From a virus: a DNA stretch of 64,000 nucleotides. The translations under genes and the position numbers were made by a program. Under the pieces are notes generated by a model that worked only from the letters and a program-made list of their open reading frames with translations, had not been told where the DNA came from and did not search any database. The stretch is taken from the IMG/VR virus record IMGVR_UViG_3300025098_000014. One strand, given 5' to 3'. Below, piece after piece: positions 13,385 to 31,916 of this stretch (positions are counted from its first letter, which is position 1; each line of letters opens with the position of its first letter).

Positions 13385-13944
13385 ACTTTATCGATATTCA
13401 TGGCGATTGCTATTCTTCTCCCCTTAGTTGGTGGAACAAGATGTGTAAGTAGTCCAGGGAATAAGACCATCATACCATTTTTAACATGCACTTCCTTGTC
13501 TTCTAAAAAGATAGGAGCAACATCTTCTTCAACATCTATGTAGTAGACGCATGACCATGCTGCAGAAAGGTGATCATGGGGAAGAGCTTGGTCACCCTTT
13601 TCCATGACAACTGCCCATAAGGACACCACTTTATAATCTGCATGAGTGTCAAAGACATGCTTCATGATGTATTTTAGCACATGCAAAGCATAATCGCCAA
13701 CAGGGAGAAATCTTTCGTCAGTTTCGCATGTGTCCCATTTGGTCAACCAGGCTTTAACAGAATGGCCTGCTGTCTCGTTAGTATCCAGATACTCTGGATC
13801 TTTCTCTCTTTTTTCTAAAATTATATCTTTGAATTTATTAAATTCTTCAGGACCATCTTCAATGACGAAGGTGGGCAGCTGACTGACCACCTTGTCGTAA
13901 TGAATAGTCTTAGATGTAGGTCCGTTCTCCATCCTGTCCACCAA
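13372..13944 (-). CDS. 2OG-Fe(II) oxygenase, paralogue of the preceding gene
   Basis: WAV......HDH, YYID, FPG.LTH.V, RIAIAMN; start uncertain. Confidence 0.8.
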   Translation of the reverse strand: MVDRMENGPTSKTIHYDKVVSQLPTFVIEDGPEEFNKFKDIILEKREKDPEYLDTNETAGHSVKAWLTKWDTCETDERFLPVGDYALHVLKYIMKHVFDTHADYKVVSLWAVVMEKGDQALPHDHLSAAWSCVYYIDVEEDVAPIFLEDKEVHVKNGMMVLFPGLLTHLVPPTKGRRIAIAMNIDKVCLP

Positions 13945-16900
13945 GCGTCATGATACTGAGTTCGCCCAAGTCTTCAAGGGCAGGGATTCCATTATACACC
14001 CTAACGGTATATCCGTTAACTGTTCTGTCAGAAATTCGTAAATTAACGATACCACCTGGGAAAGCATTTGTACCACTTGCGATACCAATGACAGCATAGT
14101 CAGTATCATTCATTGCATCAGCAAAGTTCACAGTGTATGTTCCTGTTGCAGTTTGTAAAATAGAACTTACATTGTGTGAACGATCTCCAGGGACATAATC
14201 ACTATTACCAACGCCCAGATTGCTGTTCATGTACCAGGAGGTAGCACGACCCTCATAGAACTGGGTGTAAGTAGCAGTCTTGAGACCTACAAGGTTCTTA
14301 AACTCCCCAACTCTGCTGACCTTATGGAAATCATTATTGAACACTTGGATGGAGTTACCCATGTTTCCAAATTGTGTTCCAACACCAGCACCATAGTAAA
14401 GTTGCTGTGGAGTGTTCTCGTCAATGAGAATTTCAGTATAAGTTCCAGTCTCAGTTACATTATCAGAGAACTGGTTCGGAGTTGTTGTACCAAATCCTAC
14501 TGCAGAACCATCTGGAGCATAGTAGAACCTGATCGGATAGTTTGCCTGCTGTGCTGCATTGGTAAAGCGATAGGTTTGACCTACTTCAAATCTCAGATAA
14601 GGTGATTCATAACCCTGAACATTGATAGAACGATCGGATCCAATACCAAAGTATCTGTGATCTGCTGTCTTTGTACCAATAGTAGTAGGTAGAGGCTTGA
14701 ATGTACCCTCAAACTCCGTGTAAAGGTTCTTAGCGGTGTCTGCAGCACCCGTTAAGGTGGAGAAACTAGAACTATTAGCAAAGAGTGCATTGTTTGCCTG
14801 AGAGGCGAGTCCAGCGAGCGTAGCGTAGGTAGCAATGCCAGCAATGATTGCTTCAGACGCAATGCCTGCAAGTGTAGCACGAGGTGCCTCGTTAATCGTT
14901 ACTGTAACGATACCAGCAGAGACTGGACTTACATCAAGACCAGCATTAAAGTTAACCGTTCCTGCTGTACCAACTGCGGATCCAGAATCTTGAACGATGA
15001 CACCAGAACCAGAAGCAACAATATTAGTTAACTGAGATCCGTCACCGATGAATCTCGGTGCAGTGATGTCATTACTAGATGTGATTGTAGCAGCAGAGTC
15101 TAATTGAGAAGCTGTTACTGCAGTTAATGCACTGTCAGCAGTAGTTGCCGAGGTTGCTGTAGTTGCTTGAGTAGCAATTCCGGCAACAGTTGCAAAGTCT
15201 GCTTGAGTTGCTTTCGGAACAGAAACACCAGCAGCAAGACTATTAGCAGTTTGTGCAATACTTACAGTATCCGCAGCAGTAATAGTGACAATACCAGCAG
15301 AGATAGGAGATACTGTCAGGTTTTGAGCGAAGTTAATAGTAGCAGCAGTGCCAACAGGACTATCATTGTCCTTAATAATAACACCTGCACCAACACCAGT
15401 TACACCAGTGATGCCGGAACCGTCACCAAAGAACGAATTTGCAGTGATATTACCAGTAGTATTAACATTAATATTTGTACCAATACCAGAAGGACCAGGA
15501 TCCTGAGGTACAGAGTGAGCAACAAATGTTAGGTTGGGTCTAGAACCACGAACAATTAGACTCTGACCTTTAGCAAGAGCAAGGTTATCAATCTGAACAT
15601 CTTGTAGAGGAGCCAGTCTTAGACCAAATACTAAGTAGTCAGACTCTTGGAACTCAGCGATACCGCCAGATGACAGACCGACTGACATACCAACAGTAGA
15701 ATCAGAGTTCTGGTTTGTAGCGTGAACTGTGACTAGACTATCTTCTTGTGCTGTAAAAAACTCAAGGTTAGTATTGATCTGGAAAGGAGGTTTAAATCCA
15801 AGAGTACCAGATCTTCTTCTGCCATGAACCAGAGCAGAGTCAGGACCTAACTTATCAAACTTTCTAGTAGCAAAGGCAAGGAAAGAGATGTTAGGGTCGA
15901 AAGAAGATACGAAAATTTTATCTCCAGGTTTAATACCAACTTTCTCAATCAGTCTCGTACCACCTCTTTCTAGAGGAATACCATAAGTGATAAAGTCACT
16001 CTGCTTAAATCCTGGTGTACTAGAGATACCAATAGAGAATGTAGAGCGGAAGTCATTCTGGTTTGCAACACTGATACTAACCTCAAGGAGGTTATCTGAC
16101 TCATACAACTGAACGGGCTCAACAACACCATTCGTCAGTGTTGTTTTAATAGAAGCAAGTCTACCTACCTCGGCAAGAGCGGCACCAGGAGTGGTGAATG
16201 TGACGACTGCTGAGAAAGGAGATGCATGTGCAACACCAGATGTGCCATCAGCATTAGATAGATGACGACATCTTACATAGAAAGTATGACTAGAGTTAAG
16301 TCCATCAGGAATTATTTGAGATAGAGAAGTATTATTATCACCAACACTAGTAAATACTATGGTAGTAAATCCACTATCTTCAGCAACTTCAAATTCAACT
16401 GCTTTTAAAGTACCAGATACTGCTTCACTATCAATAGAAACAAATGCACTGGATACAAGAGCAATACCAAATCTCTGATTTAGAGTAGTTCCACTAATAG
16501 GTGATGTAATAGTAGGTGCTTGAACACCAGGAGCATTACCTAAGGTAGAGAATGAAACAATACCTACAGAATAATCAGATGTATAAGAAGTGAATGCGGT
16601 GCCATCATCGTTAGATAAATGTCTGACACGGGCATAGTGTGTAGTGAAACCTGCTAACTGAACATCAACTGTTTGAATTACATTAGTATCATTATCTCCA
16701 GTAGATTCCCAAACAATAGAACTAAAGTCAGATGCGACTGAGAGTTGCATCTCAATTGCTTTTAGAGTACCAGATACGGTAGTGTCTCCAATAGCAACAT
16801 ATTGACTAGATCTTAATTGTAGTCCTTCAGTACTAATACCAATATCATTATTAACTGGAGATTCAACAGAGGGTTCTGTAATACCACCAAATTCTGTTAA

Positions 16901-18859
16901 GATACCTGCGCTGACATCCAAGTAAGCAATTTGGACTAGACCATCTCCAGTGGCAGTTCTTTGATTAAACTGTCCAGTCCACCATCGGTAATCAGAGACA
17001 CCATAGTCAACAGTAGAGAACTGATCGAATAGTAAGTCAGTACCGGTACTAGTACTACCATAAGAAATGAGATTACTAGTACCACCATAACCTGCAGTAC
17101 CCTTACCAACACCTTGTCCACAATCGTTTAATAACCACTTCCTCAAATCTTCAGATGTAGCACCGGGGTTTCTCTGTAGGTATAAAGCAATCAGTCCAGT
17201 AACTACAGGAGCAGCAGCAGATGTACCGTTGAAGTTGGCATCGAAATGAGTAGGGTTATCATATCTCTGGAAGTCTGCATAAGTTCCGCTAGGAAGACCA
17301 GCAGCTAGAGTATCCTCGGCAGGTGCATAAATGTCAACACCAGGACCACTGTTAGAATATTGTGCTTTTCTTTCTTTAAAATTAGATTCTACAAAGTCAT
17401 CAAGAGCACCCACATTAATAACAGGATGGTATCCAGTAAACTCATTAAATCCAATACCCTGAGGGTTCATCCAATCTCTATGAGATGTTGGTGTTCTCTG
17501 TCCACCAAACTCAGTCCTTGGATCATTAACACCGAATCTTAAATCCTCAACTCCATTAAGTCTATGAGGATCCGTAAATCCAAGACCAATATACTGGTTG
17601 TTATTACCAGCAGCAGCGACCATAATGACACCGGCTTCCATCATCTCATCGCCAGCAGTATTAGTGGCGTTAGATCTAGATGAAGAAGACCAGGATTTAT
17701 AAGCACCAAGCACTTGATTATTGAAACCAATAATCATATCCTCAACGCCAGATGGATCTCCAGCAGAGAGAGTTGATACATCAATGGTGCTAGAAATACC
17801 AGTAAATTTATATCTTGCAACTCCTGTTGCGTTGACAGCAGCCTGATAACCCCAAGAACCATTAACAACCGTAGGATTTCTTACACCAGTTTGCGTATTT
17901 ACTGGTTTATATAAGTGGAAGAACTTAATGAGATCATAAGATGTCTCAATGTCCATACCAACATTATCAGACACACAAGGCATTGCCCAGATGTTTGACT
18001 TAAATGCCAGACCAAAGTTTTTACCAGCAGCAAGAGATGCAGTTGCAGTACCGTGACCATCGCCTAAGTCGTTGCTACCTGATGTGCCAATACCAATAGC
18101 ACCATTCCTATTGTATCCAGAAGGAATAGAAACTTCAGGAAGAAGAACAAACTCAGAAGATCTAGCGTTGTTATCTTCCCACCATGCTTCTGCTCTGCTG
18201 GTATCAATACCAATAGATCCATCTTCTAATGTAAAAGTAAACCCGTTAACAGCAAAATATCCAGGATCAAGATAATATGGGAAGTCAAGAACGAGATCAA
18301 GCACCCTACTTGTTCCGTCATCGTTCAAGAATTCTGGGTGTGATTGCAGAGTACCAGAGTCTTGAACAACAATATCTACATTTCTACCATCATATAAGAA
18401 CTCAAAGTTACCTTGCTTAGGTGCAATATCACCAACTACACCAGCCCAAAACTCTCCATTGGTTGTAATACCAGAAAGTCTAGGAAGTGCCCAGTTCGTT
18501 CTATTTAATTCTGCAGAGGTTGGATTTGTGGCTGGTGGGCCATTACTATCTAAGTCCCTGTAAATTTTTACATCACCAGAAAATCTGTTGGGCATCACCA
18601 GAGATGGATCTGGAAAGCTTTCTCTATTATCTTTTAGTGAAAGTTCAATCCACTTGACATAAGGATGACGACCAATCTCTTGAGCCTCATCATCCGTTAA
18701 CTCATAAGTACCACGAACCGCACTGATTGAGTGCGAGTCGGTACAAGTTATTTGTCTGTCTGGAATTCCATCTTGGTTTGAGTCAATGGTGAGAGCACCA
18801 TGAATATCATTCCAATGTTCTGCACTGGTAACTGCCAGGGTATATCTTTTAAGAGTCAT
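13910..18859 (-). CDS. Subtilisin-like S8 peptidase fused to virion/fibre-type repeat domains (1649 aa)
   Basis: Catalytic motifs VVQDSG, GHGTATAS, AAGN and NGTSAAAP; C-terminal half has duplicated beta domains and a fibre-tip-like end. Confidence 0.85.
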   Translation of the reverse strand: MTLKRYTLAVTSAEHWNDIHGALTIDSNQDGIPDRQITCTDSHSISAVRGTYELTDDEAQEIGRHPYVKWIELSLKDNRESFPDPSLVMPNRFSGDVKIYRDLDSNGPPATNPTSAELNRTNWALPRLSGITTNGEFWAGVVGDIAPKQGNFEFLYDGRNVDIVVQDSGTLQSHPEFLNDDGTSRVLDLVLDFPYYLDPGYFAVNGFTFTLEDGSIGIDTSRAEAWWEDNNARSSEFVLLPEVSIPSGYNRNGAIGIGTSGSNDLGDGHGTATASLAAGKNFGLAFKSNIWAMPCVSDNVGMDIETSYDLIKFFHLYKPVNTQTGVRNPTVVNGSWGYQAAVNATGVARYKFTGISSTIDVSTLSAGDPSGVEDMIIGFNNQVLGAYKSWSSSSRSNATNTAGDEMMEAGVIMVAAAGNNNQYIGLGFTDPHRLNGVEDLRFGVNDPRTEFGGQRTPTSHRDWMNPQGIGFNEFTGYHPVINVGALDDFVESNFKERKAQYSNSGPGVDIYAPAEDTLAAGLPSGTYADFQRYDNPTHFDANFNGTSAAAPVVTGLIALYLQRNPGATSEDLRKWLLNDCGQGVGKGTAGYGGTSNLISYGSTSTGTDLLFDQFSTVDYGVSDYRWWTGQFNQRTATGDGLVQIAYLDVSAGILTEFGGITEPSVESPVNNDIGISTEGLQLRSSQYVAIGDTTVSGTLKAIEMQLSVASDFSSIVWESTGDNDTNVIQTVDVQLAGFTTHYARVRHLSNDDGTAFTSYTSDYSVGIVSFSTLGNAPGVQAPTITSPISGTTLNQRFGIALVSSAFVSIDSEAVSGTLKAVEFEVAEDSGFTTIVFTSVGDNNTSLSQIIPDGLNSSHTFYVRCRHLSNADGTSGVAHASPFSAVVTFTTPGAALAEVGRLASIKTTLTNGVVEPVQLYESDNLLEVSISVANQNDFRSTFSIGISSTPGFKQSDFITYGIPLERGGTRLIEKVGIKPGDKIFVSSFDPNISFLAFATRKFDKLGPDSALVHGRRRSGTLGFKPPFQINTNLEFFTAQEDSLVTVHATNQNSDSTVGMSVGLSSGGIAEFQESDYLVFGLRLAPLQDVQIDNLALAKGQSLIVRGSRPNLTFVAHSVPQDPGPSGIGTNINVNTTGNITANSFFGDGSGITGVTGVGAGVIIKDNDSPVGTAATINFAQNLTVSPISAGIVTITAADTVSIAQTANSLAAGVSVPKATQADFATVAGIATQATTATSATTADSALTAVTASQLDSAATITSSNDITAPRFIGDGSQLTNIVASGSGVIVQDSGSAVGTAGTVNFNAGLDVSPVSAGIVTVTINEAPRATLAGIASEAIIAGIATYATLAGLASQANNALFANSSSFSTLTGAADTAKNLYTEFEGTFKPLPTTIGTKTADHRYFGIGSDRSINVQGYESPYLRFEVGQTYRFTNAAQQANYPIRFYYAPDGSAVGFGTTTPNQFSDNVTETGTYTEILIDENTPQQLYYGAGVGTQFGNMGNSIQVFNNDFHKVSRVGEFKNLVGLKTATYTQFYEGRATSWYMNSNLGVGNSDYVPGDRSHNVSSILQTATGTYTVNFADAMNDTDYAVIGIASGTNAFPGGIVNLRISDRTVNGYTVRVYNGIPALEDLGELSIMTLGGQDGERTYI

Positions 18860-18932: not shown

Positions 18933-19727
18933 ATGAATATTGTTACTGGAGCAAAAGGTTTCATCGGTAGTCATTTTGCTAAGACCATGAATGATGTACT
19001 TGAAATTGATATTGATAACTGCTTTGATCTTCTGAACAAATTTAATCGTTGGGACGAAGTAGATATGATTATTCATATGGGTGCTCGTTCCTTTACAACA
19101 GATAAGGATGTTGACCTAGTTTATAAGTATAATATTGATTATAGTATAAAATTATTTGAGAAAGCCATTGAGCATGGAATTCCAGTAAAGTATGCATCCT
19201 CAGCATCTACTTATGGAAAATGTGATTCTGGTCCCATCATCAATCCTCTAAATTACTACGCACTATCTAAAGCAACTGTTGATTACTGGGTGCAAGACAA
19301 TATGCACAGATTCTCCCATATCCAGGGGTTTAAGTTCTTTAATGTATACGGTAGCGGTGAGGTTCACAAAGGAGAGCAGGCAAGTCTTGTAAGTAAGTTC
19401 AAGTGGCAATCTGCTACAGGCAAAGTTCACCCCTTTGAAGGATCAAATAAGGTACATAGAGATTATATCTGGGTGGGTGACATTGTAAGTGTTGTTCTCA
19501 CTAATAGTGCAGGCAGTGGCATATACGATCTAGGAACTGGTGCCGCAATTACTATTCAAGAGGTGGCAGATTTAGTCGCACAAAAAACCGAGGCTGTGGT
19601 AGAGGAAGTTCCCTTCCCACCAAACCTCGTTGGTAAGTATCAATATAATACTCAAGCAGATATGAATTGGTTAACTTATAAGTTTAAAACCGTCGCAGAT
19701 TATGTCAATCACCACGATGAATTCTAA
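18933..19727 (+). CDS. hldD: ADP-L-glycero-D-manno-heptose 6-epimerase-like SDR (HldD/RfaD)
   Basis: IVTGAKGFIG, YASSASTYG, PLNYYALSK, FFNVYG..E.HKG.QAS, RDYIWV, KYQ.NTQAD; start moved to ATG 18933. Confidence 0.85.
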   Translation: MNIVTGAKGFIGSHFAKTMNDVLEIDIDNCFDLLNKFNRWDEVDMIIHMGARSFTTDKDVDLVYKYNIDYSIKLFEKAIEHGIPVKYASSASTYGKCDSGPIINPLNYYALSKATVDYWVQDNMHRFSHIQGFKFFNVYGSGEVHKGEQASLVSKFKWQSATGKVHPFEGSNKVHRDYIWVGDIVSVVLTNSAGSGIYDLGTGAAITIQEVADLVAQKTEAVVEEVPFPPNLVGKYQYNTQADMNWLTYKFKTVADYVNHHDEF

Positions 19728-20067
19728 TTGAATCAGAGTCAAAGTGTTGCGTTGAAAACTCAAACAGTTCAGAGTCATCCAACGCAATCATCTGATGCTT
19801 TAGTCCAGTAGGAACATAGAACTTATCTCCAGGCTCTAAGACTGTGAGTTCTGCTTTACTAAGATCGTCATCCCACCCATAATATAATGAGATGAGTCCA
19901 CTCTGTAAGTAGAAGGTCTCATCTTTTATTTCATGGTAATGCCAAGAGCATCTCTTATTCTTTTCAATGAATAAGAGTTTACCACAATACATTTCATTAT
20001 TTACAATCCACTTTTCATGACCCCATCCTTTGGGTACGATTTTAATGTCTGAAGAAGTCTTTGTCAT
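19705..20067 (-). CDS. Cupin (sugar isomerase-like)
   Basis: VPKGWGHE, SWHYH..KDETFY, P.GLKH. Confidence 0.8.
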   Translation of the reverse strand: MTKTSSDIKIVPKGWGHEKWIVNNEMYCGKLLFIEKNKRCSWHYHEIKDETFYLQSGLISLYYGWDDDLSKAELTVLEPGDKFYVPTGLKHQMIALDDSELFEFSTQHFDSDSIRIHRGD

Positions 20068-20368
20068 TGATTCCTTTGTCGTCTATGTAGTAATCAGCTG
20101 AAGGTTTTCCTAAGTATAGATTATGAAACTTACATCCCCATGACTCTATTTGACTCTTAGTAAACTCATAAAACTCTTTCTCAGATAGATCTCTATCATT
20201 ATTATATCTACCCATACCTCTAGCAGTAAGATAGGTAATGATATGACCTTCATCATAGAGTTTATTTATTGTTTGTATGCGATCCCACATGGGTGTTGCA
20301 TGGGTATATCTGTGTTCTCCTTGTCCAGGAAAACAAATAGTACCATCAATATCAACAGTATATCTCAT
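20042..20368 (-). CDS. HAD-family phosphatase (capsule-biosynthesis type; candidate GmhB role)
   Basis: DIDGT, TARG, GKPSADYYIDDK. Confidence 0.8.
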   Translation of the reverse strand: MRYTVDIDGTICFPGQGEHRYTHATPMWDRIQTINKLYDEGHIITYLTARGMGRYNNDRDLSEKEFYEFTKSQIESWGCKFHNLYLGKPSADYYIDDKGINDKDFFRH

Positions 20369-20934
20369 TCAAAAAAAGTGCAAGTAACATTAAAAGAAAT
20401 AGTAATCCTATTATCTTGTGCAGGTTCAGTACAATGATACAAATCAGAAGGAAATACTAGTACGCTACCTTCACTGATATGTTTAGTATCATAAGAAAAG
20501 TTTTGATATGCCGTGTTAGATGTTCCTGCACCAAAAAATATTGTGTTGTTCTCTTCTCCTACATGAAGAAGATATACTCCAGAGAAAGTAGCGTCAGCAT
20601 GAACATGAGGACCATGCGATTCACCTACCTTATAGTTATTATACCAGATATGTTGTAAGTTTATGTCATCTACATCAGGAATGTTAAAAGGTAGAGACTC
20701 TATGCAAGATGCGACTGGATCAAATACAATTTCAGAAAATAAATCATGAAGTTCAAGGTAGTCTCCAAACTTACCAGACTTATCATTGAAATTATCGTAA
20801 CATGATTCAACTGGTCGTTGCGTTATCCAAGGAAGTAATTTTTCTTTGATCTCATCATGACTCTGCAATTTCTTTTTATAAAGAAAAGGACCAGGAAATA
20901 AAACTAGATCAGATGTTGAGGATTCTATCGACAT
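20365..20934 (-). CDS. 2OG-Fe(II) oxygenase
   Basis: WYN......PHVH, FSGVY, FPSDLYH, RITISFN. Confidence 0.85.
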   Translation of the reverse strand: MSIESSTSDLVLFPGPFLYKKKLQSHDEIKEKLLPWITQRPVESCYDNFNDKSGKFGDYLELHDLFSEIVFDPVASCIESLPFNIPDVDDINLQHIWYNNYKVGESHGPHVHADATFSGVYLLHVGEENNTIFFGAGTSNTAYQNFSYDTKHISEGSVLVFPSDLYHCTEPAQDNRITISFNVTCTFFE

Positions 20935-21703
20935 TATCCATTGTTAGAGTGTAAGTACCAGGATTCTGTACTGCAATAGCAGCCGCCTTATTAGCAAAAC
21001 AAATTGCTTCATCCATTGACGGAAGTTGAATATAATAGAAGACTAAAGCTGCGAGGAAAGTATCTCCAGCTCCAGTTACATCAAATGTCCGAACAAGATC
21101 TACACATGGAAACTTTTTTTTATTCCATGCAGCACCATCAGATCCCATAGTAACAATCATATTAGCAGAGTTAGGAATATGATCTGGATCTAAACCTTCA
21201 AACTCTTTCTTGTTAATTTTGTAGATGACATTATTATACTCAGTAGGTAAGACAGTTTTTTTCGTATCCACAAATATCTTAGTATTAGGATACCTACCAG
21301 CAATGTCACTGATTGTTTTTGCGTCGGGAATATATCCTTTGTCATAGTCCGAAATAACAATAGCATCATATGTTTCATGCAATAAAGCCATCTGCAATTC
21401 AGATGGATGTAAGGGTCTTACATCGGGTTCATTATCTACTCGGACAATCTGTTGGTTAGATCTACTATCAATGTATCTCGTCTTAGTGAGAGGTTCCTTA
21501 TTAGTAAGAAAGGTTACATTAATACCAAGAGACTCTAGATTGGCATGAACATTAGCAGCCATGCCAGGTGCCTGTTCTTTTTCGCTTTGGATCAATATAG
21601 GAACTGGTGCCTCTGGGCTTAGTCTATTGCATGGACCATAGACCCATTCATCAGTACAACTATCCCCGATCAATAATACTTTGTATGGTCTTGCTAGTTG
21701 CAT
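20909..21703 (-). CDS. PfkB-family sugar kinase, HldE/RfaE heptose-7-phosphate kinase-like
   Basis: IGDSC.D....G...RLSPEAPVP, ISDYDKG, DVTGAGDTF. Confidence 0.88.
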   Translation of the reverse strand: MQLARPYKVLLIGDSCTDEWVYGPCNRLSPEAPVPILIQSEKEQAPGMAANVHANLESLGINVTFLTNKEPLTKTRYIDSRSNQQIVRVDNEPDVRPLHPSELQMALLHETYDAIVISDYDKGYIPDAKTISDIAGRYPNTKIFVDTKKTVLPTEYNNVIYKINKKEFEGLDPDHIPNSANMIVTMGSDGAAWNKKKFPCVDLVRTFDVTGAGDTFLAALVFYYIQLPSMDEAICFANKAAAIAVQNPGTYTLTMDNVDRILNI

Positions 21704-24827: not shown

Positions 24828-24853
24828 ACTAATTTGGTCAACAAAGTATATAG

Positions 24854-25591
24854 TTATAAAAAGAAAACCTGATTCACTCGATCATGTTCGGTGAACATCC
24901 CATGATCAATGTTCTGCGAGTGCATCACATCAGCTTCATAAAAGATACATCTATTATACACCATTTCAGCCTCATATTCAACTCTCCACTCCCTATCACC
25001 ATACAACCACTTTCTAATGTATGGAAAACACTGTTCAGGTCTTGTAACCTCATCATCAAATCCCTCGGGTTTGTCAATATATTCTATTACCTTATATGGA
25101 AGAGACATCTGCCCTTTATACGAATATAAATTTGTACCACCTTGGCATTCTTCTGGAGTATTCAAATAGATCACCACTCCAAACTGATTAAAGTCTGTGG
25201 TAATGTCATTCATATAAGCATCTTGATGGGGAATACTACACCAAGGTGCATGAAATACACTATGATAATTCAAAATATTGCACATGAATCCAACAGCATC
25301 CCATTGAAATTCATACATTTTTTGGTGAATATGCTTGCTCCACAAAGAATTGTCTAAGCAATACTTATCAAAGAATGGTTTGAGTTTATCTTTTACTTCT
25401 GATGTTTCTTGGAATACTCTCTGTCCAGGAAGACCCTTGATTAAATTCTTATCATCTTTCTTTTCAGATCTTAATGCAAGTTCTCTTACTTCATCTGGAT
25501 TTTTATAAAAATTATCAACAGTTATAATCGTTCTATTTTGTGGTCCTACTCTCTTAATACTAACATCAAGATTTTCATTTAGTTCAAACAT
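24854..25591 (-). CDS. DUF6445-like 2OG-Fe(II) oxygenase
   Basis: VDNFYKNPDEVR, PHQD, IYLN.....GGT, YNR.I.Y....H, R.NQ.FF. Confidence 0.75.
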   Translation of the reverse strand: MFELNENLDVSIKRVGPQNRTIITVDNFYKNPDEVRELALRSEKKDDKNLIKGLPGQRVFQETSEVKDKLKPFFDKYCLDNSLWSKHIHQKMYEFQWDAVGFMCNILNYHSVFHAPWCSIPHQDAYMNDITTDFNQFGVVIYLNTPEECQGGTNLYSYKGQMSLPYKVIEYIDKPEGFDDEVTRPEQCFPYIRKWLYGDREWRVEYEAEMVYNRCIFYEADVMHSQNIDHGMFTEHDRVNQVFFL

Positions 25592-25610: not shown

Positions 25611-25665
25611 CAAAAAAAATTCCGGGGAAAATTTCCCCGAAATTATGGAATTAAAAAGTCAATTT
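25611..25665 (-). terminator. Intrinsic terminator (repeat element copy 2)
   Basis: TTCGGGGAAATTTTCCCCGGAA followed by T8. Confidence 0.7.
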
Positions 25666-25682
25666 CGTTTCAGGATCAATTA

Positions 25683-26423
25683 TTATTCTTCAGTAGTAAT
25701 ATCAGTTGAGTTCAGTCCAGTCTCAGGAGACTCTCCTGTAAATCCATCAACATCACCAGGCTCTCTAGGCCATACGATCAGATAAGTATTGTTACCAACA
25801 CTACTCCAAGTATCGGGCAGCTCCCTCAACTTTTGACGATACGCTGTCCATTCACTAACATAACCTGCTGGAGCATCTGCAGGAATTTTATTATCAGATT
25901 GTGAAAGTAGCATATCTCTTGTTTTTCTTACTTCTTCCCACCCAAAGGACTGACTATCAGTTTCATCTCCAAACTCAAATTCTGTATGGGGACCAGAGAA
26001 TCTACCTGTATTCCAAAGACTAGTCTCAAAATTATAACCAAACGAGCACATATCATATACTTCATTGAAGTAAAGATAGTTAGGAAGAATTGGGTTAGGT
26101 TCTGAGTCAGGACCAGCAGGAGTTTCAATCAGTTCTGGAGGAAGAATGCCTCCAAACATTGCAACTGCATTCATAGGATGAGTATCAGCATTAAGCTCGA
26201 CAACTCTTGTCCCAACTGGAGGATCTCTGTCTTCACCAGGATCAGATGGGAAAGAATGCTCTACTTCCCAATTAGGATCAGCATCTGTTCCAGTATTTGT
26301 ATACCAGAAAGTAATCTTATCTGGTCCAGTATATGTACAGATACCACTTCTATTTGTGTCCTGAGTATCTCCATACCATTCAGTGGGTACAGGATAAACA
26401 ATTGTTTTAGTAATTTGCGCCAT
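25683..26423 (-). CDS. Tail fibre assembly chaperone-like protein
   Basis: C-terminal WEEVR..RD.LL..SD...W.AYRQKLRELP...WP motif. Confidence 0.75.
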   Translation of the reverse strand: MAQITKTIVYPVPTEWYGDTQDTNRSGICTYTGPDKITFWYTNTGTDADPNWEVEHSFPSDPGEDRDPPVGTRVVELNADTHPMNAVAMFGGILPPELIETPAGPDSEPNPILPNYLYFNEVYDMCSFGYNFETSLWNTGRFSGPHTEFEFGDETDSQSFGWEEVRKTRDMLLSQSDNKIPADAPAGYVSEWTAYRQKLRELPDTWSSVGNNTYLIVWPREPGDVDGFTGESPETGLNSTDITTEE

Positions 26424-26454
26424 TGCTAAAAATGTACTCCGTTATAAGTATTTA

Positions 26455-27333
26455 TCAGGACCAAGTTGTAACAACTACGAGGCCACCACCGCCCCAATCA
26501 CCCCAGCATTGACTGCCTTGAGTAGAACCAGAGAATCCACCACCACCAGGGAACAGCGAAGGTGCAGAACAACATCCTCTAGTATTACCATAAGCACAAC
26601 GGTTTGTACCGAAGTTTCTTTGGGTCTGCCAAGGACCAACTGGAGAAGATGCGACTGCCCATGCTCCTGAGTGACAGTCCACATGCTTCAGTTCACCACC
26701 AGACAAACCACAAATATAGAATTCGTTTTCTGGGTTTGCTGAATCAGGCTTAGATTGTCCATCAGGCCAAGCAGCGGAACATGCATTGAAACAGTTAGTT
26801 CTTTGTGCTACTTTCAGACAAGTATAGCAACTATTAGTACATCTTTGCGTTGCATAAGATCCACCTTGCATACAGAAGGTTCCTAATCCACCACCTAAGA
26901 CGAAAGAAGGACATCCATAGAATCCACAACCGGTTCTACCGTGGCAACAACCACAGCAGGAACATCTGCTAGTGGAACCAGAGCAAATGGTAAACTGAGT
27001 AGATCCTGCAGTGAAGTGACCGCAGTTAGCGTATTGCATTTTAGTAGCGTAACCGCCACCACCGCCGCCCATACCAGGTCCATTGCCACAGCAGCGACCA
27101 CCTGAACCTGATCCACCACCAGATACAATTTCAAATTGAATCGTGGTTACTTTTTCTGGTACAGTCCAGAGATGGCAGCAACCACCATTACATGGGGTAT
27201 TATGGCAACAGTTAAAATAAAAGCTTCTACAAACATTACCTGTAGATACACCTGTTACTTTACCGGGTCCAACGGTTCCATCGATAATTGCATCAGAGGC
27301 ATCGATTTTTTTATAGGTTTGATAGTCAGCCAT
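26455..27333 (-). CDS. Cys/Gly-rich distal tail fibre / adhesin-like protein
   Basis: WTVP..VT.I.FEI.SGGGSG, polyglycine runs, terminal GGGGLVVV; 29 Cys in 292 aa. Confidence 0.7.
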   Translation of the reverse strand: MADYQTYKKIDASDAIIDGTVGPGKVTGVSTGNVCRSFYFNCCHNTPCNGGCCHLWTVPEKVTTIQFEIVSGGGSGSGGRCCGNGPGMGGGGGGYATKMQYANCGHFTAGSTQFTICSGSTSRCSCCGCCHGRTGCGFYGCPSFVLGGGLGTFCMQGGSYATQRCTNSCYTCLKVAQRTNCFNACSAAWPDGQSKPDSANPENEFYICGLSGGELKHVDCHSGAWAVASSPVGPWQTQRNFGTNRCAYGNTRGCCSAPSLFPGGGGFSGSTQGSQCWGDWGGGGLVVVTTWS

Positions 27334-27383: not shown

Positions 27384-27410
27384 TAAAAAGAAGGGAGATT
27401 GCTCTCCCCT
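27384..27410 (-). terminator. Intrinsic terminator
   Basis: AGGGGAGAGCAATCTCCCTTC followed by a T tract. Confidence 0.65.
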
Positions 27411-27420: not shown

Positions 27421-30400
27421 TCAGATAGTGATGATTCTCCATCCTTGTGATCCATCATAGTAGACCAATTCAAATGCCGCACCTTCAGTAGATACAACCA
27501 AGTCAGAAGAGTCACCCATGATTGGTTGACTATTTCTACCAATCGTAAGGTTATTAGAGTCAAATGTCTTGGCAACATCGAAGATTCTAATAGAATCACC
27601 CTTAACAGGAGATGCAGGAAGAGTAACAGTGAATGCACCGCCACTAGTATTACACCAGGCTTGCTGTCTGTTTGCTAATGTGGTTCCATTACCACTGACA
27701 TCTACATTAGCGTAGGCACCTAGAGGTAACCAACCAGAACCGTTATAGAATTCAAATCCATCAGCGTCGGTATCGTAGCGGAGACCACCTTCGATCAGAT
27801 CAATACCAGTAGGTCTAGTTGCCTGAGTACCACGAGGTGGAACAATAATACCAGAAGTGGTATCCATCTTACCGCGAGTGAGGAAGCCACGAACTGCTTT
27901 CTCAGTAGGACATGCTTGGTTAGAGTCGCCAGATAGGAATTCATCAGAAGAGAATTCGTTAACTGCTTCACCAATCTGACCGCCAATGGCACCCAGTCTC
28001 AGTTCAGAAAGACCTGATAGGTTGAATGCGGAAGCATCCAGGGTAGCAGCACCAGTCAACTGGTTAACAGAGAAGTATTCACCAACTCTGAAGTTACCAC
28101 CTTGGTCAGTAGAGACGAAGAAGATCTTACCAGTATTCAGTACAGTTGTCTCGTTACCCTGAGAAGCTGTGTTCTCATCAACATTTGGATAATTAGTTTG
28201 TGAAGTGTTGCCTGTACCAATCAGCAGGAAGTCATGACCCGTGAGACGAACCTTGGAGAACTTAGATCTCATCAAGAACTCTTGATCATCGAAGGAAGAA
28301 GGAGAAGCTCCTTTAACTGGTGCAATGTTAATCGTTGCACGACCAGATGCAAAGTCATATGCAGAAACTGTTCTGATAATGTAACTAATTGAATCGGAGA
28401 ATCCCATTCCAACTGTAGTGAATCCAATCGCATCACCAACAAGTGGTGCTGTGCTTAGTCCGACTACCTCAAATAGTCCATCCTTCTGTCCACCAACAGC
28501 GTTAGATGCAGATGCAATCTTAACATATCCTGTAGCAGCAGCACCAACGCTATCAAACTCAATGAATTCACCAGGTGTGAAGACAGTAGTACCAACACCA
28601 ACAGCACCGTTAGCACCATCAGCGTTACCAAATCCACTATTGTACTTAAAGTACAGTTGATCACCGGAGATCTGATTGTTTGTAACTACAGCGCGAGCTC
28701 CTGATACAGTACCACGCATCGTAGCACCAACAGAGATAGTACCAGCAGCAGTACCAACTTGGGTAGACATCTTGTCACCGAAGAGGCGACCAGAACGAGC
28801 AACTTCTAGTGTGGAGAATCCAACAGCCAATGCACCGTATGTACCGTAGGAGTTGTTACCTGAGAGAGATCTGATCTCAGATCCGTCATCAGAAACATAA
28901 CCGAAAGCACAGTAGTAAGTGAAGGAAGAAACAATTTCAGCAAGAGCATCATCTTCAAGCCAGAAACCTACACCACCGGAGTGAATGTTAGTAAAGGCGT
29001 CGAAGACCATCGACTTACCACCTCTACCCTCAGGTTTACCCTCGTGTACACCACCCTCAATAAAGATACCGATAGCACCACCATGACCAGTACCATCAGT
29101 ACATACATTAGAGAATGCGGTACAATCTTTAATGTAAGGTGAACGCTCAAGAATAGGAGTATCAGGATTAAGTCTGAAGTAAACACCGCAAGTTGTAGTA
29201 CCTACACCAACTTTATTCTGCCACTTATCAGTATTGAAAGGATCATTAGTATCATAATCAAATCCTTGCAGACCCTTCATCGTGATCGCCTGAACCGTAG
29301 TAGAGTCAGAGACGAAGAACATCGTCTGACGACTATTAGGAACAAGACCGTCAGTAGAAACACCAGAAGCTGGTTGAACAGTCGTACCTCTCAGAACATC
29401 ACCAGCAATGGAGAAGTTCTTAGGTAGAGTAATAGGAAGTTGCTCACTGAATACACCAGCAGACAACTTAAGAATGATAGGAGATACATCAGTAACCTCA
29501 CCACCACTCACATAAGTATGAGCAATTGTAGAGATACCAACATTGGTAGAGAATGTGTTGGAGTCAACTACAGAGTCAACTTTGAAGAAGAATCCTTGTG
29601 TACCATCGGGGAAGATAGTAGTTGTGACACCAGCATGAGCTACGGCACAAGTGAATCCAATACCCTGAAGTTTAACCTGACCCTGAGGGAACAAACCATG
29701 AGCGGCAGCAGTAATTGTTGCAATACCGCTAGACTCATCATAAACGAAGTTGGTAACATCTCTTCTAATCTGACCAGCAGTAGAAGCATAAGCAATATTG
29801 GCCCAAGCATTATCTGGGGTAAGACCTGTATTATCGTTATTACCCTGTTGAGCGTCAACATAGTATACCTTGGTGCGAAGACCAGGATACTGCCACTCAA
29901 TCTCATCGCTAGAAGAGACTCTTAGATATGTACCTTGCGTACCAATACCCTGTCTCGTAGGGCCAGTACCATCTCTGGTGAGCAAGTCACCTTTGGTTGT
30001 CAGCAGTGCTGCGCTATCACCGATAGCAAACGCTGCCCACATGGTAACAGCAGTACCAGGTTGGACATTAATGTTCGATGAAGCTACTGAGATGTAAGCA
30101 GAAGATGAGAACTCAGCAACATCACCGATCTCGTATACACCAGAACCACTCCAGGTACTTCTCCAGTTAAATCCTCTGGTCAACAGAGACCAACCATTAG
30201 TACCAGTATCAATGGTAGTAATAGCAGTACCGACAGGTCGGTTGTCTGCAACAATCTTAACTTGGTCAGCAATATAAGTGTTACCACCAAGGGTTACAAT
30301 CTCACCACGAGCATAGATTTGACCAGGATCGTAGGTAGAACCTGCTCCAGTACCAATACCACCAACAAGAACTGACCAGTCAGCAGCATTTTCGTTAGGT

Positions 30401-31083
30401 TGAGAACCTTTAGGGTTAGTACCGATAGCAACATAAGATGCACCGATATACTCTACAATATCCCCCCTTTCATAGCGGGTATTTGCATCGTAGAGACCTT
30501 CATTAGTGAAGGCTTTGTTAAAGTCTGTAAAATTAGATGCTGGAGGATAGAAACCGTCCGAACCTACTCCAGTAGGATCATGGAAACTAGTAGAAACCCC
30601 CTGCATTGTAAAGTCGCTAGCGACTTGGAAGGGAACAGTTGTACGATATTCTTGTCCACCATACTTAACAACATCATTGATGCCATAATAAGTAGCGGTT
30701 GTGAAAGCACCTCGGAAGTTCAGTCCCTCAGCATAGAGATCCCAATATTGTGGGAAGTCGGAACTGTACCAGTTGCTTTGTACACCAACTGATACATGTT
30801 GTGCCGTACAGATATATTGATTACCGCCTTCCTTGACGATATCGTTTACAACATATCCAGTACCAACTGTCCACTCGCCAGCAAAGTTCTGACCCTCTGT
30901 GTGGAGGTCCCAGTTGGCACTGTCGTTGGGGAAGCCAGTAGCACCTGCGTCCGATGTGTGGTTGGTAGTACAAACATAAGAGCTGGCACCGTATCTAACG
31001 ATGTCATCAATAATGAATGCGGTAGAAGCTGTCCAGGCACCACGCCAGTTAAATTTCAGTCTACCTAGTCTAAATTCTGCCAT
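27421..31083 (-). CDS. Tail fibre / virion structural protein with carbohydrate-binding-like repeats and a beta-helix (1220 aa)
   Basis: Six W/F-x-G-x-W...Y..D.V..GG..Y repeats, a VYYVDA..GND beta-helix start and a C-terminal TVTLPASP..GD.I domain. Confidence 0.75.
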   Translation of the reverse strand: MAEFRLGRLKFNWRGAWTASTAFIIDDIVRYGASSYVCTTNHTSDAGATGFPNDSANWDLHTEGQNFAGEWTVGTGYVVNDIVKEGGNQYICTAQHVSVGVQSNWYSSDFPQYWDLYAEGLNFRGAFTTATYYGINDVVKYGGQEYRTTVPFQVASDFTMQGVSTSFHDPTGVGSDGFYPPASNFTDFNKAFTNEGLYDANTRYERGDIVEYIGASYVAIGTNPKGSQPNENAADWSVLVGGIGTGAGSTYDPGQIYARGEIVTLGGNTYIADQVKIVADNRPVGTAITTIDTGTNGWSLLTRGFNWRSTWSGSGVYEIGDVAEFSSSAYISVASSNINVQPGTAVTMWAAFAIGDSAALLTTKGDLLTRDGTGPTRQGIGTQGTYLRVSSSDEIEWQYPGLRTKVYYVDAQQGNNDNTGLTPDNAWANIAYASTAGQIRRDVTNFVYDESSGIATITAAAHGLFPQGQVKLQGIGFTCAVAHAGVTTTIFPDGTQGFFFKVDSVVDSNTFSTNVGISTIAHTYVSGGEVTDVSPIILKLSAGVFSEQLPITLPKNFSIAGDVLRGTTVQPASGVSTDGLVPNSRQTMFFVSDSTTVQAITMKGLQGFDYDTNDPFNTDKWQNKVGVGTTTCGVYFRLNPDTPILERSPYIKDCTAFSNVCTDGTGHGGAIGIFIEGGVHEGKPEGRGGKSMVFDAFTNIHSGGVGFWLEDDALAEIVSSFTYYCAFGYVSDDGSEIRSLSGNNSYGTYGALAVGFSTLEVARSGRLFGDKMSTQVGTAAGTISVGATMRGTVSGARAVVTNNQISGDQLYFKYNSGFGNADGANGAVGVGTTVFTPGEFIEFDSVGAAATGYVKIASASNAVGGQKDGLFEVVGLSTAPLVGDAIGFTTVGMGFSDSISYIIRTVSAYDFASGRATINIAPVKGASPSSFDDQEFLMRSKFSKVRLTGHDFLLIGTGNTSQTNYPNVDENTASQGNETTVLNTGKIFFVSTDQGGNFRVGEYFSVNQLTGAATLDASAFNLSGLSELRLGAIGGQIGEAVNEFSSDEFLSGDSNQACPTEKAVRGFLTRGKMDTTSGIIVPPRGTQATRPTGIDLIEGGLRYDTDADGFEFYNGSGWLPLGAYANVDVSGNGTTLANRQQAWCNTSGGAFTVTLPASPVKGDSIRIFDVAKTFDSNNLTIGRNSQPIMGDSSDLVVSTEGAAFELVYYDGSQGWRIITI

Positions 31084-31095
31084 TGTAGATTCTCG

Positions 31096-31446
31096 TTAAA
31101 CAGGTTCAGAGTATGAGTGGGTTCCATTGACCTGAAGGACGATGTATCCGTCAGTGTCTAAGTAATAAAAAAGGTTTCGCCTATCAAAGCGTATCTGTTG
31201 ATATTTATCTTGCGGGTTATTGGCAAGTGCCTTTTGTTCAGTGGTTTCTTCAACATAATCGTTGTAGTCACCGAATTCTTCAACCTGCGTACCATCTAAA
31301 CGATGGGGATCAAGTGTTTCAGTTGTAGATGCAGTGCTTACCTTACTAAAGTAAAGCATATCATCAGCATCTCTCCTTAGAGCATAGACATAGTAACCGG
31401 TCGAATCCTTAGGTTGGAAATGAGCATTACTTAAAGTTAAAGCCAT
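31096..31446 (-). CDS. Conserved virion-module hypothetical protein
   Basis: YALRRD..GMLY-like and KYQQIRFD..LFYYLD.DG motifs; within the fibre operon. Confidence 0.6.
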   Translation of the reverse strand: MALTLSNAHFQPKDSTGYYVYALRRDADDMLYFSKVSTASTTETLDPHRLDGTQVEEFGDYNDYVEETTEQKALANNPQDKYQQIRFDRRNLFYYLDTDGYIVLQVNGTHSYSEPV

Positions 31447-31916
31447 TAGCTAATGATTCTCCAATAACTACCAGTCCATAAAAACATAACAGTCACTCCC
31501 GAAACATCTAAGTTCACGGGACCATCATCAATATTTCCAATCGCATCTTTAAATTGATGCAAAGATGAGCTCAATATAACATTATTTATATTCCAATTTT
31601 GTGCGCCATCAGCGATCTCAATACTGTCACCAATAGACAGGTTGACCACGGGCATTGTTGCATTGATAGCACCAGCAGTTGTGTTGGCAAGATACCTTTT
31701 ATTCACAACTAACTGTGTTGTGATCGGACCAGTAAGATCGGTATAAACAGGAGTAGCACCAGTTGCTGCTTGAGCAACAGTTTCTACATTGTTTCCTGAT
31801 CGGATGTAGATTTTCTGGTCAACTATATTAATAGCCATCTCGCCATCTTCGAGGTCAACTAGACCAGGAATTTGACCTTGCGTGGTACTTCTTTTTGGTT
31901 TAATGCGTGTAGGCAT
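31446..31916 (-). CDS. Virion structural protein (fibre-associated)
   Basis: IKPKRS....P...LEDGEMAIN..DQKIY N-terminus; C-terminal domain resembles the end of the 1220-aa fibre. Confidence 0.65.
   Translation of the reverse strand: MPTRIKPKRSTTQGQIPGLVDLEDGEMAINIVDQKIYIRSGNNVETVAQAATGATPVYTDLTGPITTQLVVNKRYLANTTAGAINATMPVVNLSIGDSIEIADGAQNWNINNVILSSSLHQFKDAIGNIDDGPVNLDVSGVTVMFLWTGSYWRIIS

Follow-up and report, generated by a model that had tools for sequence, protein, structure and literature searches.

A sugar cassette directly behind the tail-fibre tip genes of a marine cyanophage, and its possible role in decorating the virion

What does a phage modify with a sugar whose genes stand directly behind those of its tail-fibre tips? 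The question is raised by an uncultured T4-like marine cyanophage, of which one 64,000-nucleotide stretch (IMG/VR record IMGVR_UViG_3300025098_000014, termed the window) was analysed. It matches a cassette already published for cyanomyoviruses, T4-GC 302-308, found in P-SSM2, S-SSM7, S-CAM1/3 and Sf-FS3. Its genes have long been known and, as an earlier sequence-only reading of this DNA rightly stated, are usually called LPS genes; the new part is the hypothesis that they glycosylate the virion. The best single reading, a tentative one, is that a carbamoyl-heptose cassette decorates the phage's own fibre-tip proteins. No glycan has been reported on any cyanophage protein, and a literature search found no paper testing for one.

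The cassette is flanked upstream by tail-fibre genes and downstream by a peptidase/fibre-like protein:

31916-25683, minus strand: fibre block of five genes, listed next
31446-31916, minus strand: 156-aa tail protein, T4-GC 294/1334-like, first gene of the block (phrog_9648 tail protein, E 2e-17)
31096-31446, minus strand: 116-aa conserved fibre-module protein (T4-GC 295, phrog_8997)
27421-31083, minus strand: 1220-aa tail fibre with N-terminal CBM_5_12 (phrog_9851, E 8e-249; PF02839)
26455-27333, minus strand: 292-aa Gly/Cys-rich fibre-tip-like protein with 29 Cys, candidate acceptor (history in common with the glycosyltransferase, r 0.95)
25683-26423, minus strand: 246-aa protein whose C-terminus is of the tail-fibre assembly chaperone type (PF16778, E 2e-10; phrog_4912)
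13910-18859, minus strand: 1649-aa protein with an N-terminal S8 subtilase (PF00082, E 2e-22) and C-terminal tail-fibre-like domains (phrog_6942, 30742 and 11355)

The 116-aa protein occurs in the same set of phage isolates as the glycosyltransferase (GT)-like gene, S-BM3 excepted. None of the window's fibre proteins showed collagen repeats.

Between these flanks, the minus strand from 25591 to 19705 reads DUF6445 oxygenase, GT, carbamoyltransferase (CT), nucleotidyltransferase (NT), kinase, oxygenase, HAD phosphatase and cupin, and an epimerase follows on the opposite strand:

24854-25591, minus strand: DUF6445 2OG-Fe(II) oxygenase, always adjoining the GT (PF20043, E 2e-12)
23847-24827, minus strand: divergent GT9-fold glycosyltransferase, putative heptosyltransferase (phrog_8954)
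22057-23850, minus strand: 597-aa NodU/CmcH/TobZ-type O-carbamoyltransferase (PF16861, E 3e-59; PF02543, E 7e-27)
21660-22064, minus strand: 134-aa HldE domain-II-type nucleotidyltransferase, first gene of a separately evolving block (TIGR02199, E 2e-33)
20909-21703, minus strand: 264-aa HldE domain-I-type PfkB sugar kinase (TIGR02198, E 7e-41)
20365-20934, minus strand: 189-aa 2OG-FeII_Oxy_5 oxygenase, a variable insert
20042-20368, minus strand: 108-aa minimal cap-less HAD phosphatase with DxDGT, T, K and DD motifs, putative GmhB analogue
19705-20067, minus strand: 120-aa cupin (Cupin_2), putative aldose-ketose isomerase replacing GmhA
18933-19727, plus strand: HldD-like ADP-heptose 6-epimerase (SDR), 264 aa from M26 (TIGR02197, E 9e-55)

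Every gene named in the sequence-only reading was found in the order that it gave, and the translational coupling that it proposed is confirmed because the genes overlap by 4-44 nt from GT to cupin. The epimerase is likewise present, on the opposite strand, with its start at 18933 rather than 18858. The 2OG-FeII_Oxy_5 oxygenase is missing from most related loci, and the contig of one relative skips 20368-20927.

The pathway genes have heptose-specific families as their best NCBIfam matches, by wide margins, and all of these matches fall under the equivalog cut-offs. The NT scores 115 bits against TIGR02199 (cut-off 181.5) and the kinase 140 bits against TIGR02198 (cut-off 345), with ribokinase next at 51 bits. 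Over its full length, the epimerase shares 37% identity with E. coli HldD (E 7e-46). The HAD protein matches a "capsule biosynthesis protein" (PDB 9iqw, E 6e-10) and TIGR01689 (E 5e-5); its GenBank homologues carry the label "phosphoheptose isomerase". The best solved relatives of the cupin are D-lyxose/D-mannose isomerase (E 2e-3), L-ribose isomerase and M6P isomerase, and "cysteine dioxygenase" is the GenBank label on its homologues. A search for an SIS/GmhA gene came up empty in S-SSM7, in G002 (a genome discussed below) and in a relative that is 97% identical and 93% complete. The earlier assignment of a heptose-type pathway with a GT9 enzyme and a carbamoyltransferase is well supported at the level of family and fold. 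Since the matches lie below the equivalog cut-offs, a sugar other than L,D-heptose is possible.

The cassette can be viewed as a phage-borne glycosylation system of two evolutionary modules. The first (cupin, PfkB kinase, HAD, NT and epimerase) would make the donor: starting from sedoheptulose-7-phosphate, an abundant metabolite in cyanobacteria, it would yield an ADP-heptose-type sugar independently of the host. The cupin may act as a PMI-like ketose-aldose isomerase substituting for GmhA, after which the kinase would form the 1,7-bisphosphate, the HAD protein remove the 7-phosphate, the NT activate the sugar and the epimerase invert C6. The second module (DUF6445 oxygenase, GT and CT) would use this donor: the GT would transfer heptose to an acceptor, the CT would O-carbamoylate a sugar hydroxyl, and DUF6445 may prepare the acceptor by Pro/Lys hydroxylation or tailor the sugar. 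The likeliest acceptor is the Cys/Gly-rich 292-aa protein, perhaps also the fibres. The modification would take place in the cytoplasm, at a late stage of infection, and would leave the adsorption apparatus carbamoyl-heptosylated.

How far does the GT itself indicate the acceptor? PF01075 matches 23 of the 54 members of the GT family and gives the window's protein only 17 bits (cut-off 22). In the predicted model, the GT9 fold is clear, with Z 18-24 against every solved GT9 and 12.8 for the next family. Heptosyltransferases that modify proteins and those that modify LPS cannot be told apart by this fold: the model matches TibC, which acts on protein (Z 20.0, rmsd 3.2 over 265 residues), about as well as WaaF of LPS synthesis (Z 21.2). 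LPS is the target of most GT9 enzymes characterised so far, WaaF and WaaC are close structural matches, and the literature reads such genes as host-surface remodelling (PMC2984593, PMC7824862, PMC12801897), in which the infected cell would receive carbamoyl-heptose on its LPS, its capsule or some other envelope glycan. If true, the outcome could be a superinfection block, less binding of progeny to debris, or grazer deterrence. This explanation is doubtful here, though it draws further on another cluster in the window, large and with multiple GTs (43.8-53.7 kb), that resembles polysaccharide synthesis, and on G002, where the heptose module lies inside a larger GT25/GT32/sulfotransferase/methyltransferase cluster. 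Long cyanophage latent periods would also permit export.

Several observations weigh against a host-surface target. The LPS of marine Synechococcus WH8102 (host of Sf-FS3) and CC9311 lacks both heptose and Kdo (PMC4515613), the acceptors of WaaF and WaaC. No real homologue of the GT family was found among 151 host-family genomes. Neither sugar cluster of the window contains a flippase, polymerase, initiating transferase or other multi-pass membrane protein. Nor does host-surface remodelling predict the late-type promoter element, the position in a virion module, or a history common to fibre-tip rather than sugar genes, described below. Pointing the other way, gmhA-like genes are present in roughly a quarter of host-family genomes and clear GT9 genes in roughly a tenth, which means that heptose is not wholly foreign to the hosts.

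The two tailoring enzymes raise a different possibility. The CT matches the NodU model with E 4e-39 (135 bits, under the equivalog cut-off of 1000). In DUF6445, the HxD...H triad and the 2OG-binding Arg are intact, and H122, D124, H224 and R238 are invariant. Its predicted model (pLDDT 89.7) is nearest to protein prolyl/lysyl hydroxylases (Z 12-14), including mimivirus L230 (Z 12.8), and the sugar oxygenases PolD and PasI, at Z 12.2, are nearly equal to the protein hydroxylases at 12.8-14.0. The likeness extends to SnoN and HygX, which like PolD and PasI tailor high-carbon antibiotic sugars. Enzymes of both kinds, NodU/CmcH-type carbamoyltransferases as well as 2OG oxygenases, are typical of antibiotic tailoring, and in S-SSM7 and S-SSM6a the cassette further includes a tryptophan halogenase, a methyltransferase and a second carbamoyltransferase (PMC7824862). 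A secondary-metabolite pathway (Iyer et al. 2021), making a carbamoylated, sometimes halogenated sugar-derived antibiotic or toxin in infection or pseudolysogeny, is nevertheless very improbable: no scaffold-forming enzyme or exporter is present, the halogenase and extra enzymes are missing from the window and most relatives, and the core is a nucleotide-sugar pathway with a GT-B transferase, fixed in the structural module and sharing the history of the fibre-tip genes.

That shared history and the position of the cassette favour decoration of the fibre tip. With unchanged gene order, the cassette follows immediately on the fibre genes of S-SSM7, S-CAM1, P-SSM2 and Sf-FS3 (four isolate genera) and of 80 IMG/VR loci, and in S-BM3 the tip proteins, chaperone and cassette are all missing together. 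The distance matrices of the 292-aa protein, chaperone, DUF6445, GT and CT correlate mutually at r 0.87-0.95, compared to only 0.23-0.64 with the adjacent NT-kinase-HAD-cupin-epimerase block (bootstrap difference 0.54, 95% interval 0.24-0.81). By this sequence measure, the GT, CT, DUF6445, Cys-rich tip protein and chaperone share a single evolutionary history, which the sugar-nucleotide genes do not. Adjacent genes can acquire a common history from linkage alone; the boundary falls exactly between transferases and sugar genes, which makes neutral linkage alone hard to accept.

In T4-like phages, accessory genes are known to gather in the fibre region. The cassette might be an accessory island in this hyperplastic region, with another acceptor or no functional tie to the fibres; its target would then be a soluble glycan, a phage or host protein outside the virion or, with least probability, DNA. 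This is unlikely. In its favour, one locus (L089) has a homologous GT alone between nrdA and nrdB, away from fibre genes; CT homologues, with 142 cyanomyovirus records to 55 for the GT, often stand alone elsewhere in the genome; and hypervariable regions are documented among cyanomyovirus structural genes (PMC2984593). Against it are the block boundary, the lack of evidence for modified DNA in cyanomyoviruses (PMC2984593), and a position kept across several Kyanoviridae genera and other phage lineages. A distant GT homologue lies between a tail fibre and a tail protein in the N4-like Vibrio phage SBP1, and in a different T4-like lineage others have DUF4376, RCC1 and collagen-repeat proteins as neighbours.

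The transcription signals of the region are as follows:

27391-27410, minus strand: terminator-like hairpin after the fibre gene
25618-25644, minus strand: strong intrinsic-terminator-like hairpin (12 pairs and a T run) at the boundary of chaperone gene and cassette, kept in relatives
24846-24853, minus strand: CTATATAC, which may serve as the cassette's late promoter, 26 nt upstream of the GT start

The strong hairpin divides the fibre genes from the cassette, a point in favour of the accessory-island reading. The motif [AC]TAAATA occurs 12-65 nt upstream of starts 11 times (2.05 expected). Late-promoter-like elements precede the genes for the 156-aa tail protein (GATAAATA, 35 nt upstream), the Cys-rich 292-aa protein (CATAAATA, 40 nt), the 246-aa chaperone-like protein (GATAAATA, 32 nt) and the 1649-aa protein (CTAAATA, 39 nt). 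The -26 position ahead of the GT is occupied by canonical CTAAATA/ATAAATA in 17 of 58 distinct relatives and by CTATATAA in most others; [AC]TAAATA is also there in Sf-FS3 and S-CAM1, and the window's own CTATATAC is a two-mismatch variant. These promoter-like motifs suggest late expression of the cassette. The proposed virion-protein target is favoured, on circumstantial grounds, by synteny, common history, this element, a phage-only GT family and the lack of membrane or export components, and is weakened by the terminator, the non-discriminating fold and the nrdA/nrdB homologue.

Comparison with known systems places the cassette in context. T4-GC 302-308 cassettes (PSSM2_307-313 in P-SSM2, SSSM7_120-133 in S-SSM7, SXBG_00216-222 in S-CAM1 and Sf-FS3 102-111) contain orthologues, with GT and CT 44-65% identical in amino acids (the window phage is ~62-65% identical to S-SSM7 and Sf-FS3), in the order GT, CT, NT, kinase, HAD, cupin and opposite-strand epimerase directly behind the tail-fibre block. 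The window differs in lacking the S-SSM7 inserts (halogenase, second carbamoyltransferase, denV and methyltransferase), in its extra 2OG oxygenase at 20365-20934, and in being followed by the S8/fibre-like protein instead of gp13 directly. Compared to the Gram-negative ADP-L-glycero-beta-D-manno-heptose pathway (GmhA, HldE, GmhB, HldD), the phage kinase, NT and epimerase are clear homologues, whereas HldE is split into two genes, a cupin is the candidate substitute for SIS-fold GmhA, and the phosphatase is of the cap-less capsule-phosphatase type rather than GmhB.

In the phage CT, both Carbam_trans_N and Carbam_trans_C of NodU/TobZ/CmcH are highly significant, but the score is far below equivalog level and CT paralogues stand alone in many cyanophages. 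TibC and Aah, GT9 enzymes that O-heptosylate autotransporter adhesins, share the fold of the phage GT, a gene position beside adhesin-like genes and presumably an ADP-heptose donor. They differ in sequence (~12% identity), and no invariant Cys was found in the phage GT family, which means that the TibC iron finger is absent. Mycobacteriophage capsid and tail glycosylation (Freeman et al. 2023, as cited in PMC12801897) and mimivirus L230 involve other GT families and other sugars, and glycosylation is demonstrated there, whereas in the cyanophage it is proposed. In both, as here, viral GTs adjoin structural genes, and the collagen hydroxylase-glycosyltransferase L230 pairs a 2OG hydroxylase with a GT, much as DUF6445 is paired with the GT of the cyanophage.

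The best single explanation of the cassette, and one to be held tentatively, is that it decorates the phage's own fibre-tip proteins. The window is AT-rich (36–44% GC), and nearly all of its transcription is from the minus strand. The genes from the tail protein to the 1649-aa subtilase/fibre-like (S8) protein are arranged as follows:

31916 to 25683, minus strand: structural block of five genes
first in the structural block, minus strand: tail protein, 156 aa
second, minus strand: conserved protein, 116 aa
third, minus strand: tail fibre, 1220 aa (phrog_9851, E 8e-249)
fourth, minus strand: Gly/Cys-rich protein, 292 aa with 29 Cys
fifth, minus strand: 246-aa protein with a tail-fibre-assembly-chaperone C-terminus
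25644 to 25618: strong terminator-like hairpin, after the structural block and before the cassette
25591 to 19705, minus strand: cassette string of eight genes, in the order DUF6445 oxygenase, GT9-like transferase (GT), carbamoyltransferase (CT), HldE domain-II nucleotidyltransferase (NT), HldE domain-I kinase, 2OG-FeII_Oxy_5 oxygenase, 108-aa HAD and 120-aa cupin
start at 18933, strand opposite to the string: SDR epimerase, aligned to E. coli HldD
downstream of the cassette: S8 protein, 1649 aa, combining a subtilase domain with tail-fibre-like domains at the C-terminus

The ends of the eight string genes overlap by 4–44 nt. The HldD alignment begins at Met26 of the SDR, so the start of this gene is placed at 18933, not 18858. 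Domain and profile matches, together with the overlapping ORFs, confirm the list and order of genes between the fibre genes and the 1649-aa peptidase that a sequence-only reading had given.

The 2OG-FeII_Oxy_5 gene (20365–20934, minus strand) is a variable insert that is absent from most related loci; in one relative, a contig runs straight from 20368 to 20927 without it. Immediately downstream of the S8 protein, at 12830–13944 on the minus strand, come two further 2OG-Fe(II) oxygenase genes (184 and 190 aa); with the two of the cassette, they bring the number of such oxygenases to four within 13 kb. In a related phage (run X3), some contigs lack the chaperone gene (25669 to 26455) and others connect 27333 back to 25691, which suggests that close relatives have lost or rearranged their tip-protein and chaperone genes (window 25669–27333). 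A second string of about 11 overlapping genes, at 43822–53659 on the minus strand, may feed the same acceptor as the cassette. By appearance, tRNA-like sequence lies upstream of two genes on the minus strand, at 55927–55996 and 59074–59136 (GGAGATTAGCTCAGCGGTAGAGC... and AGTTTAGCTCAGTGGTAGAGC...).

The gene set is already present in published genomes, and the window is a further example of it. GT and CT have orthologues with 44–65% identity in Sf-FS3, S-SSM7, S-SSM6a, S-CAM1, S-CAM3, P-SSM2 and P-SSM5. In isolate genomes the cassette (T4-GC 302–308) has the same order, follows the tail protein/tail fibre block immediately and precedes fibre or structural proteins and gp13–15. What these “LPS genes” of cyanophages do has been debated ever since cyanomyovirus genomes were first sequenced (2005). 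That such genes are already known in large cyanomyoviruses and usually read as host-LPS modifiers, as the sequence-only reading had stated, is borne out by the isolate orthologues and by the published reading, in which they alter the host surface (PMC2984593, PMC12801897). The S-SSM6a cluster has been read as capsule decoration or as producing a halogenated sugar-derived secondary metabolite (PMC7824862). A secondary metabolite as the product here ranks below fibre-tip decoration and is very improbable. A literature search found no paper proposing or testing glycosylation of cyanophage virions.

The sugar-nucleotide enzymes of the cassette resemble those of heptose synthesis. In NCBIfam, the kinase, NT and epimerase match heptose-specific families best by wide margins, and all three fall under the equivalog cut-offs: TIGR02198 for the kinase (140 bits, cut-off 345; ribokinase 51 bits), TIGR02199 for NT (115 bits, cut-off 181.5; glycerol-3-P cytidylyltransferase 74 bits) and TIGR02197 for the SDR (E 9e-55, 186 bits, cut-off 274.6; GalE 41 bits). 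The kinase and adenylyltransferase domains of HldE are on separate genes here. Over 302 columns (E 7e-46) the SDR is 37% identical to E. coli HldD, and the alignment takes in the N-terminal GxxGxxG. Each of the four HAD motifs (DxDGT, T, K, DD) is present in the 108-aa HAD, whose matches to a solved “capsule biosynthesis protein” of 134 aa (9iqw, E 6e-10) and to TIGR01689 (E 5e-5) place it in the small capsule-phosphatase group and not in the GmhB/HisB group. In view of these motifs and the 9iqw match, the name “phosphoheptose isomerase” carried by GenBank homologues (L001–L004) of this gene (20042–20368) is probably wrong.

No SIS family was matched among the cassette genes scanned, and PF13580, the SIS-fold GmhA family, was not matched in G001 (a relative 97% identical and 93% complete), in G002 (a different T4-like genome with the cassette) or in S-SSM7. 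The nearest solved relatives of the cupin are D-lyxose/D-mannose isomerase, L-ribose isomerase and mannose-6-P isomerase, all of them weak matches (E ≥ 2e-3); the GenBank name “cysteine dioxygenase” given to homologues of this gene (19705–20067) looks wrong, since the nearest relatives are sugar isomerases. With no SIS gene present and a cupin nearest to sugar isomerases, it is a reasonable inference that the cupin is a candidate PMI-like isomerase in the place of GmhA. CT contains both expected domains, the Kae1-like N-terminal (PF02543, E 7e-27) and the YrdC-like C-terminal (PF16861, E 3e-59), and scores 135 bits against the NodU equivalog (cut-off 1000). At the level of family and fold, the cassette thus probably makes an activated heptose-type sugar, transfers it and carbamoylates it.

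The GT family is a divergent GT9 branch. The window GT scores 17 bits against Pfam PF01075, under the gathering score of 22, and 23 of 54 diverse family members match this profile at E ≤ 0.01 (best 2e-8). Every solved GT9 structure lies at Z 18–24 to the GT model (pLDDT 93), with 23.7 for 3tov, 21.2 for WaaF, 20.0 for TibC and 18.5 for WaaC, while the next GT-B family reaches 12.8. The D..G.H region aligns to WaaC and WaaF (hhalign, hmmsearch), and the hhalign alignment of the family to E. coli WaaC is confined to the C-terminal domain, with none over the N-terminal acceptor domain. Given the similar scores of WaaF and TibC, the modelled fold does not discriminate an LPS target from a protein target. 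Glycosylation of DNA was set aside: GT9 is not known to include DNA-acting members. In addition, a review finds no evidence for modified DNA in cyanomyoviruses (PMC2984593).

DUF6445 always adjoins GT, and its HxD...H iron triad and 2OG-binding Arg are invariant. Its nearest folds are OGFOD1 (Z 14.0), PHD2 (12.8), mimivirus L230 (12.8) and LH3 (12.2). The sugar-tailoring oxygenases PolD and PasI also reach 12.2, less than 2 Z units from the protein prolyl/lysyl hydroxylases, so that the modelled fold hints at a hydroxylase-glycosyltransferase pair and is not decisive. A search of PDB sequences with the DUF6445 family profile gave nothing useful. In PHROGs and S-SSM7 this oxygenase carries the label “minor coat protein”.

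Among 80 IMG/VR loci recovered with GT (61–99% identity), all 80 show one order wherever the contig reaches: tail protein, 116-aa protein, fibre, Cys-rich protein, chaperone, DUF6445, GT, CT, NT, kinase, HAD, cupin, epimerase and S8 protein. The fibre module of S-BM3 consists of the first three genes, with a short fibre; Cys-rich proteins, chaperone and cassette are all missing together. In the N4-like Vibrio phage SBP1, a 25%-identical GT homologue has the tail fibre gene on one side and a tail protein gene on the other, and sugar genes are absent from its neighbourhood; in the viral locus L094 the homologue comes after large proteins weakly similar to tail fibres. In G002 and the viral locus L092, DUF6445, GT, NT, kinase, cupin and epimerase belong to a larger glycan cluster, with DUF4376, RCC1 and collagen-repeat proteins on its flanks.

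G002 is a distinct 195-kb T4-like genome with terminal repeats. Its cluster (L093:528-16185) also has a GT25, a GT32-like enzyme, a sulfotransferase, several methyltransferases and TPR proteins, with no carbamoyltransferase detected, and its flanks hold one DUF4376 protein, two RCC1-repeat proteins and one collagen-repeat protein. A clear counter-example to universal fibre linkage is L089:7986-8915, where a lone GT homologue lies between nrdA and nrdB, far from fibre genes; this viral contig also carries pstS. Transfer to other acceptors ranks below fibre-tip decoration and is quite unlikely.

Pairwise distance matrices compared over 16 non-redundant loci divide the region into three blocks. 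The first comprises the tail protein, 116-aa protein and fibre (r 0.77–0.88), with which the S8 protein correlates. The second comprises the Cys-rich protein, chaperone, DUF6445, GT and CT (r 0.87–0.95), and the third NT, kinase, HAD, cupin and epimerase (r 0.73–0.86). Blocks 2 and 3 are adjacent, yet r between them is just 0.23–0.64, and r(GT, Cys-rich) exceeds r(GT, NT) by 0.54 (bootstrap 95% interval 0.24–0.81). This means that the acceptor-side enzymes travel with the fibre-tip genes, while the sugar-supply genes have a separate history. Co-adaptation of the transferases to the tip protein would predict a boundary at the CT/NT junction (22057–22064), where it is found; linkage can also make such blocks.

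Expression timing bears on the acceptor as well. The motif [AC]TAAATA, which we take to be the late-promoter motif of T4-like cyanophages, occurs 11 times at 12–65 nt before a start codon (2.05 expected), including upstream of the tail protein, Cys-rich protein, chaperone and S8 protein. Exactly at −26 of GT, CTAAATA or ATAAATA is found in 17 of 58 distinct relatives, CTATATAA in most of the others and CTATATAC in the window; the isolates S-CAM1 and Sf-FS3 have canonical motifs before GT. For exact TATAAATA, the 6 occurrences are close to the 4.9 expected, with no enrichment, and a sigma-70 scan was uninformative, with fewer sites than in shuffles. These motifs make late expression of the cassette likely in many relatives. 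The ortholog table of PMC7238727, consulted for the temporal class of PSSM2_307–313, lists the genes with no class. Metatranscriptome contigs from two marine runs contain pieces of the cassette and fibre genes, and give no timing, strand or level, with DNA carry-over possible.

Remodelling of the host surface, the published reading, ranks below fibre-tip decoration and is unlikely. As the sequence-only reading had stated, characterised marine Synechococcus LPS is without heptose: that of WH8102 and CC9311 contains neither Kdo nor heptose (PMC4515613), and the canonical WaaC and WaaF acceptors are therefore missing. At 50% identity, the GT family counts 383 representatives; in 151 host-family genomes it has no real homologue, so GT is not a recently captured host LPS gene. 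A hydropathy scan of both sugar clusters of the window found no multi-pass membrane protein. Against this, roughly one host-family genome in four has gmhA-like genes and about one in ten has clear GT9 genes. Some marine Synechococcus genomes code for a bifunctional protein like HldE (~515 aa, 194 bits) and also have a gmhA-like gene, with heptose-gene sites at:

G004:C1:1016161-1017105, MIT S9451
G005:C1:1501633-1502577, MIT S9452

The heptose pathway is thus a sporadic accessory trait in the host family.

The proposal that the cassette glycosylates virion proteins gains from the linkage, shared history and late-type motifs; the fold is neutral towards it, and L089 counts against it. Decoration of fibre tips would begin with host sedoheptulose-7-P, converted towards heptose via the cupin isomerase replacing GmhA. 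Hydroxylation of Pro/Lys by DUF6445 might precede transfer of the heptose by the phage-only GT9 branch onto Cys/Gly-rich tip proteins, and the transferred sugar would then be O-carbamoylated. The transferase set and tip protein would be swapped together as one host-range module, with the sugar-supply module constant. This joint scheme, in which a phage-only GT9 heptosylates the phage's own tip proteins by way of the cupin route and carbamoylation, and the GT set swaps with the tip protein, is somewhat more doubtful than fibre-tip decoration as such.

The block analysis gives the virion-target hypothesis a sharper and directly testable form, and cultured carriers of the cassette exist (S-SSM7, P-SSM2, S-CAM1 and Sf-FS3), as do cassette-free phages such as S-BM3 and Syn9. 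If host LPS is the target, the finding is ordinary. If the virion is the target, the receptor-binding proteins of abundant ocean phages would be coated with sugar, and this coat could influence stability, host range and how grazers or host defences recognise the phage. Protein heptosyltransferases of GT9 would then include a second class, a viral one, and heptose synthesis would have the cupin as an entry route besides GmhA.

The GT family differs from known protein heptosyltransferases in its cysteines. TibC has an iron-finger Cys cluster, whereas an alignment of 54 GT family sequences has no invariant or near-invariant Cys, and no CxxC was found in the window GT; the TibC iron finger is therefore absent. 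In the BAHT enzymes (TibC/Aah), the adhesin acceptor is encoded beside the enzyme; in the window, the genes next to GT are fibre-tip and chaperone genes that share its history, and a tip protein would be the candidate acceptor.
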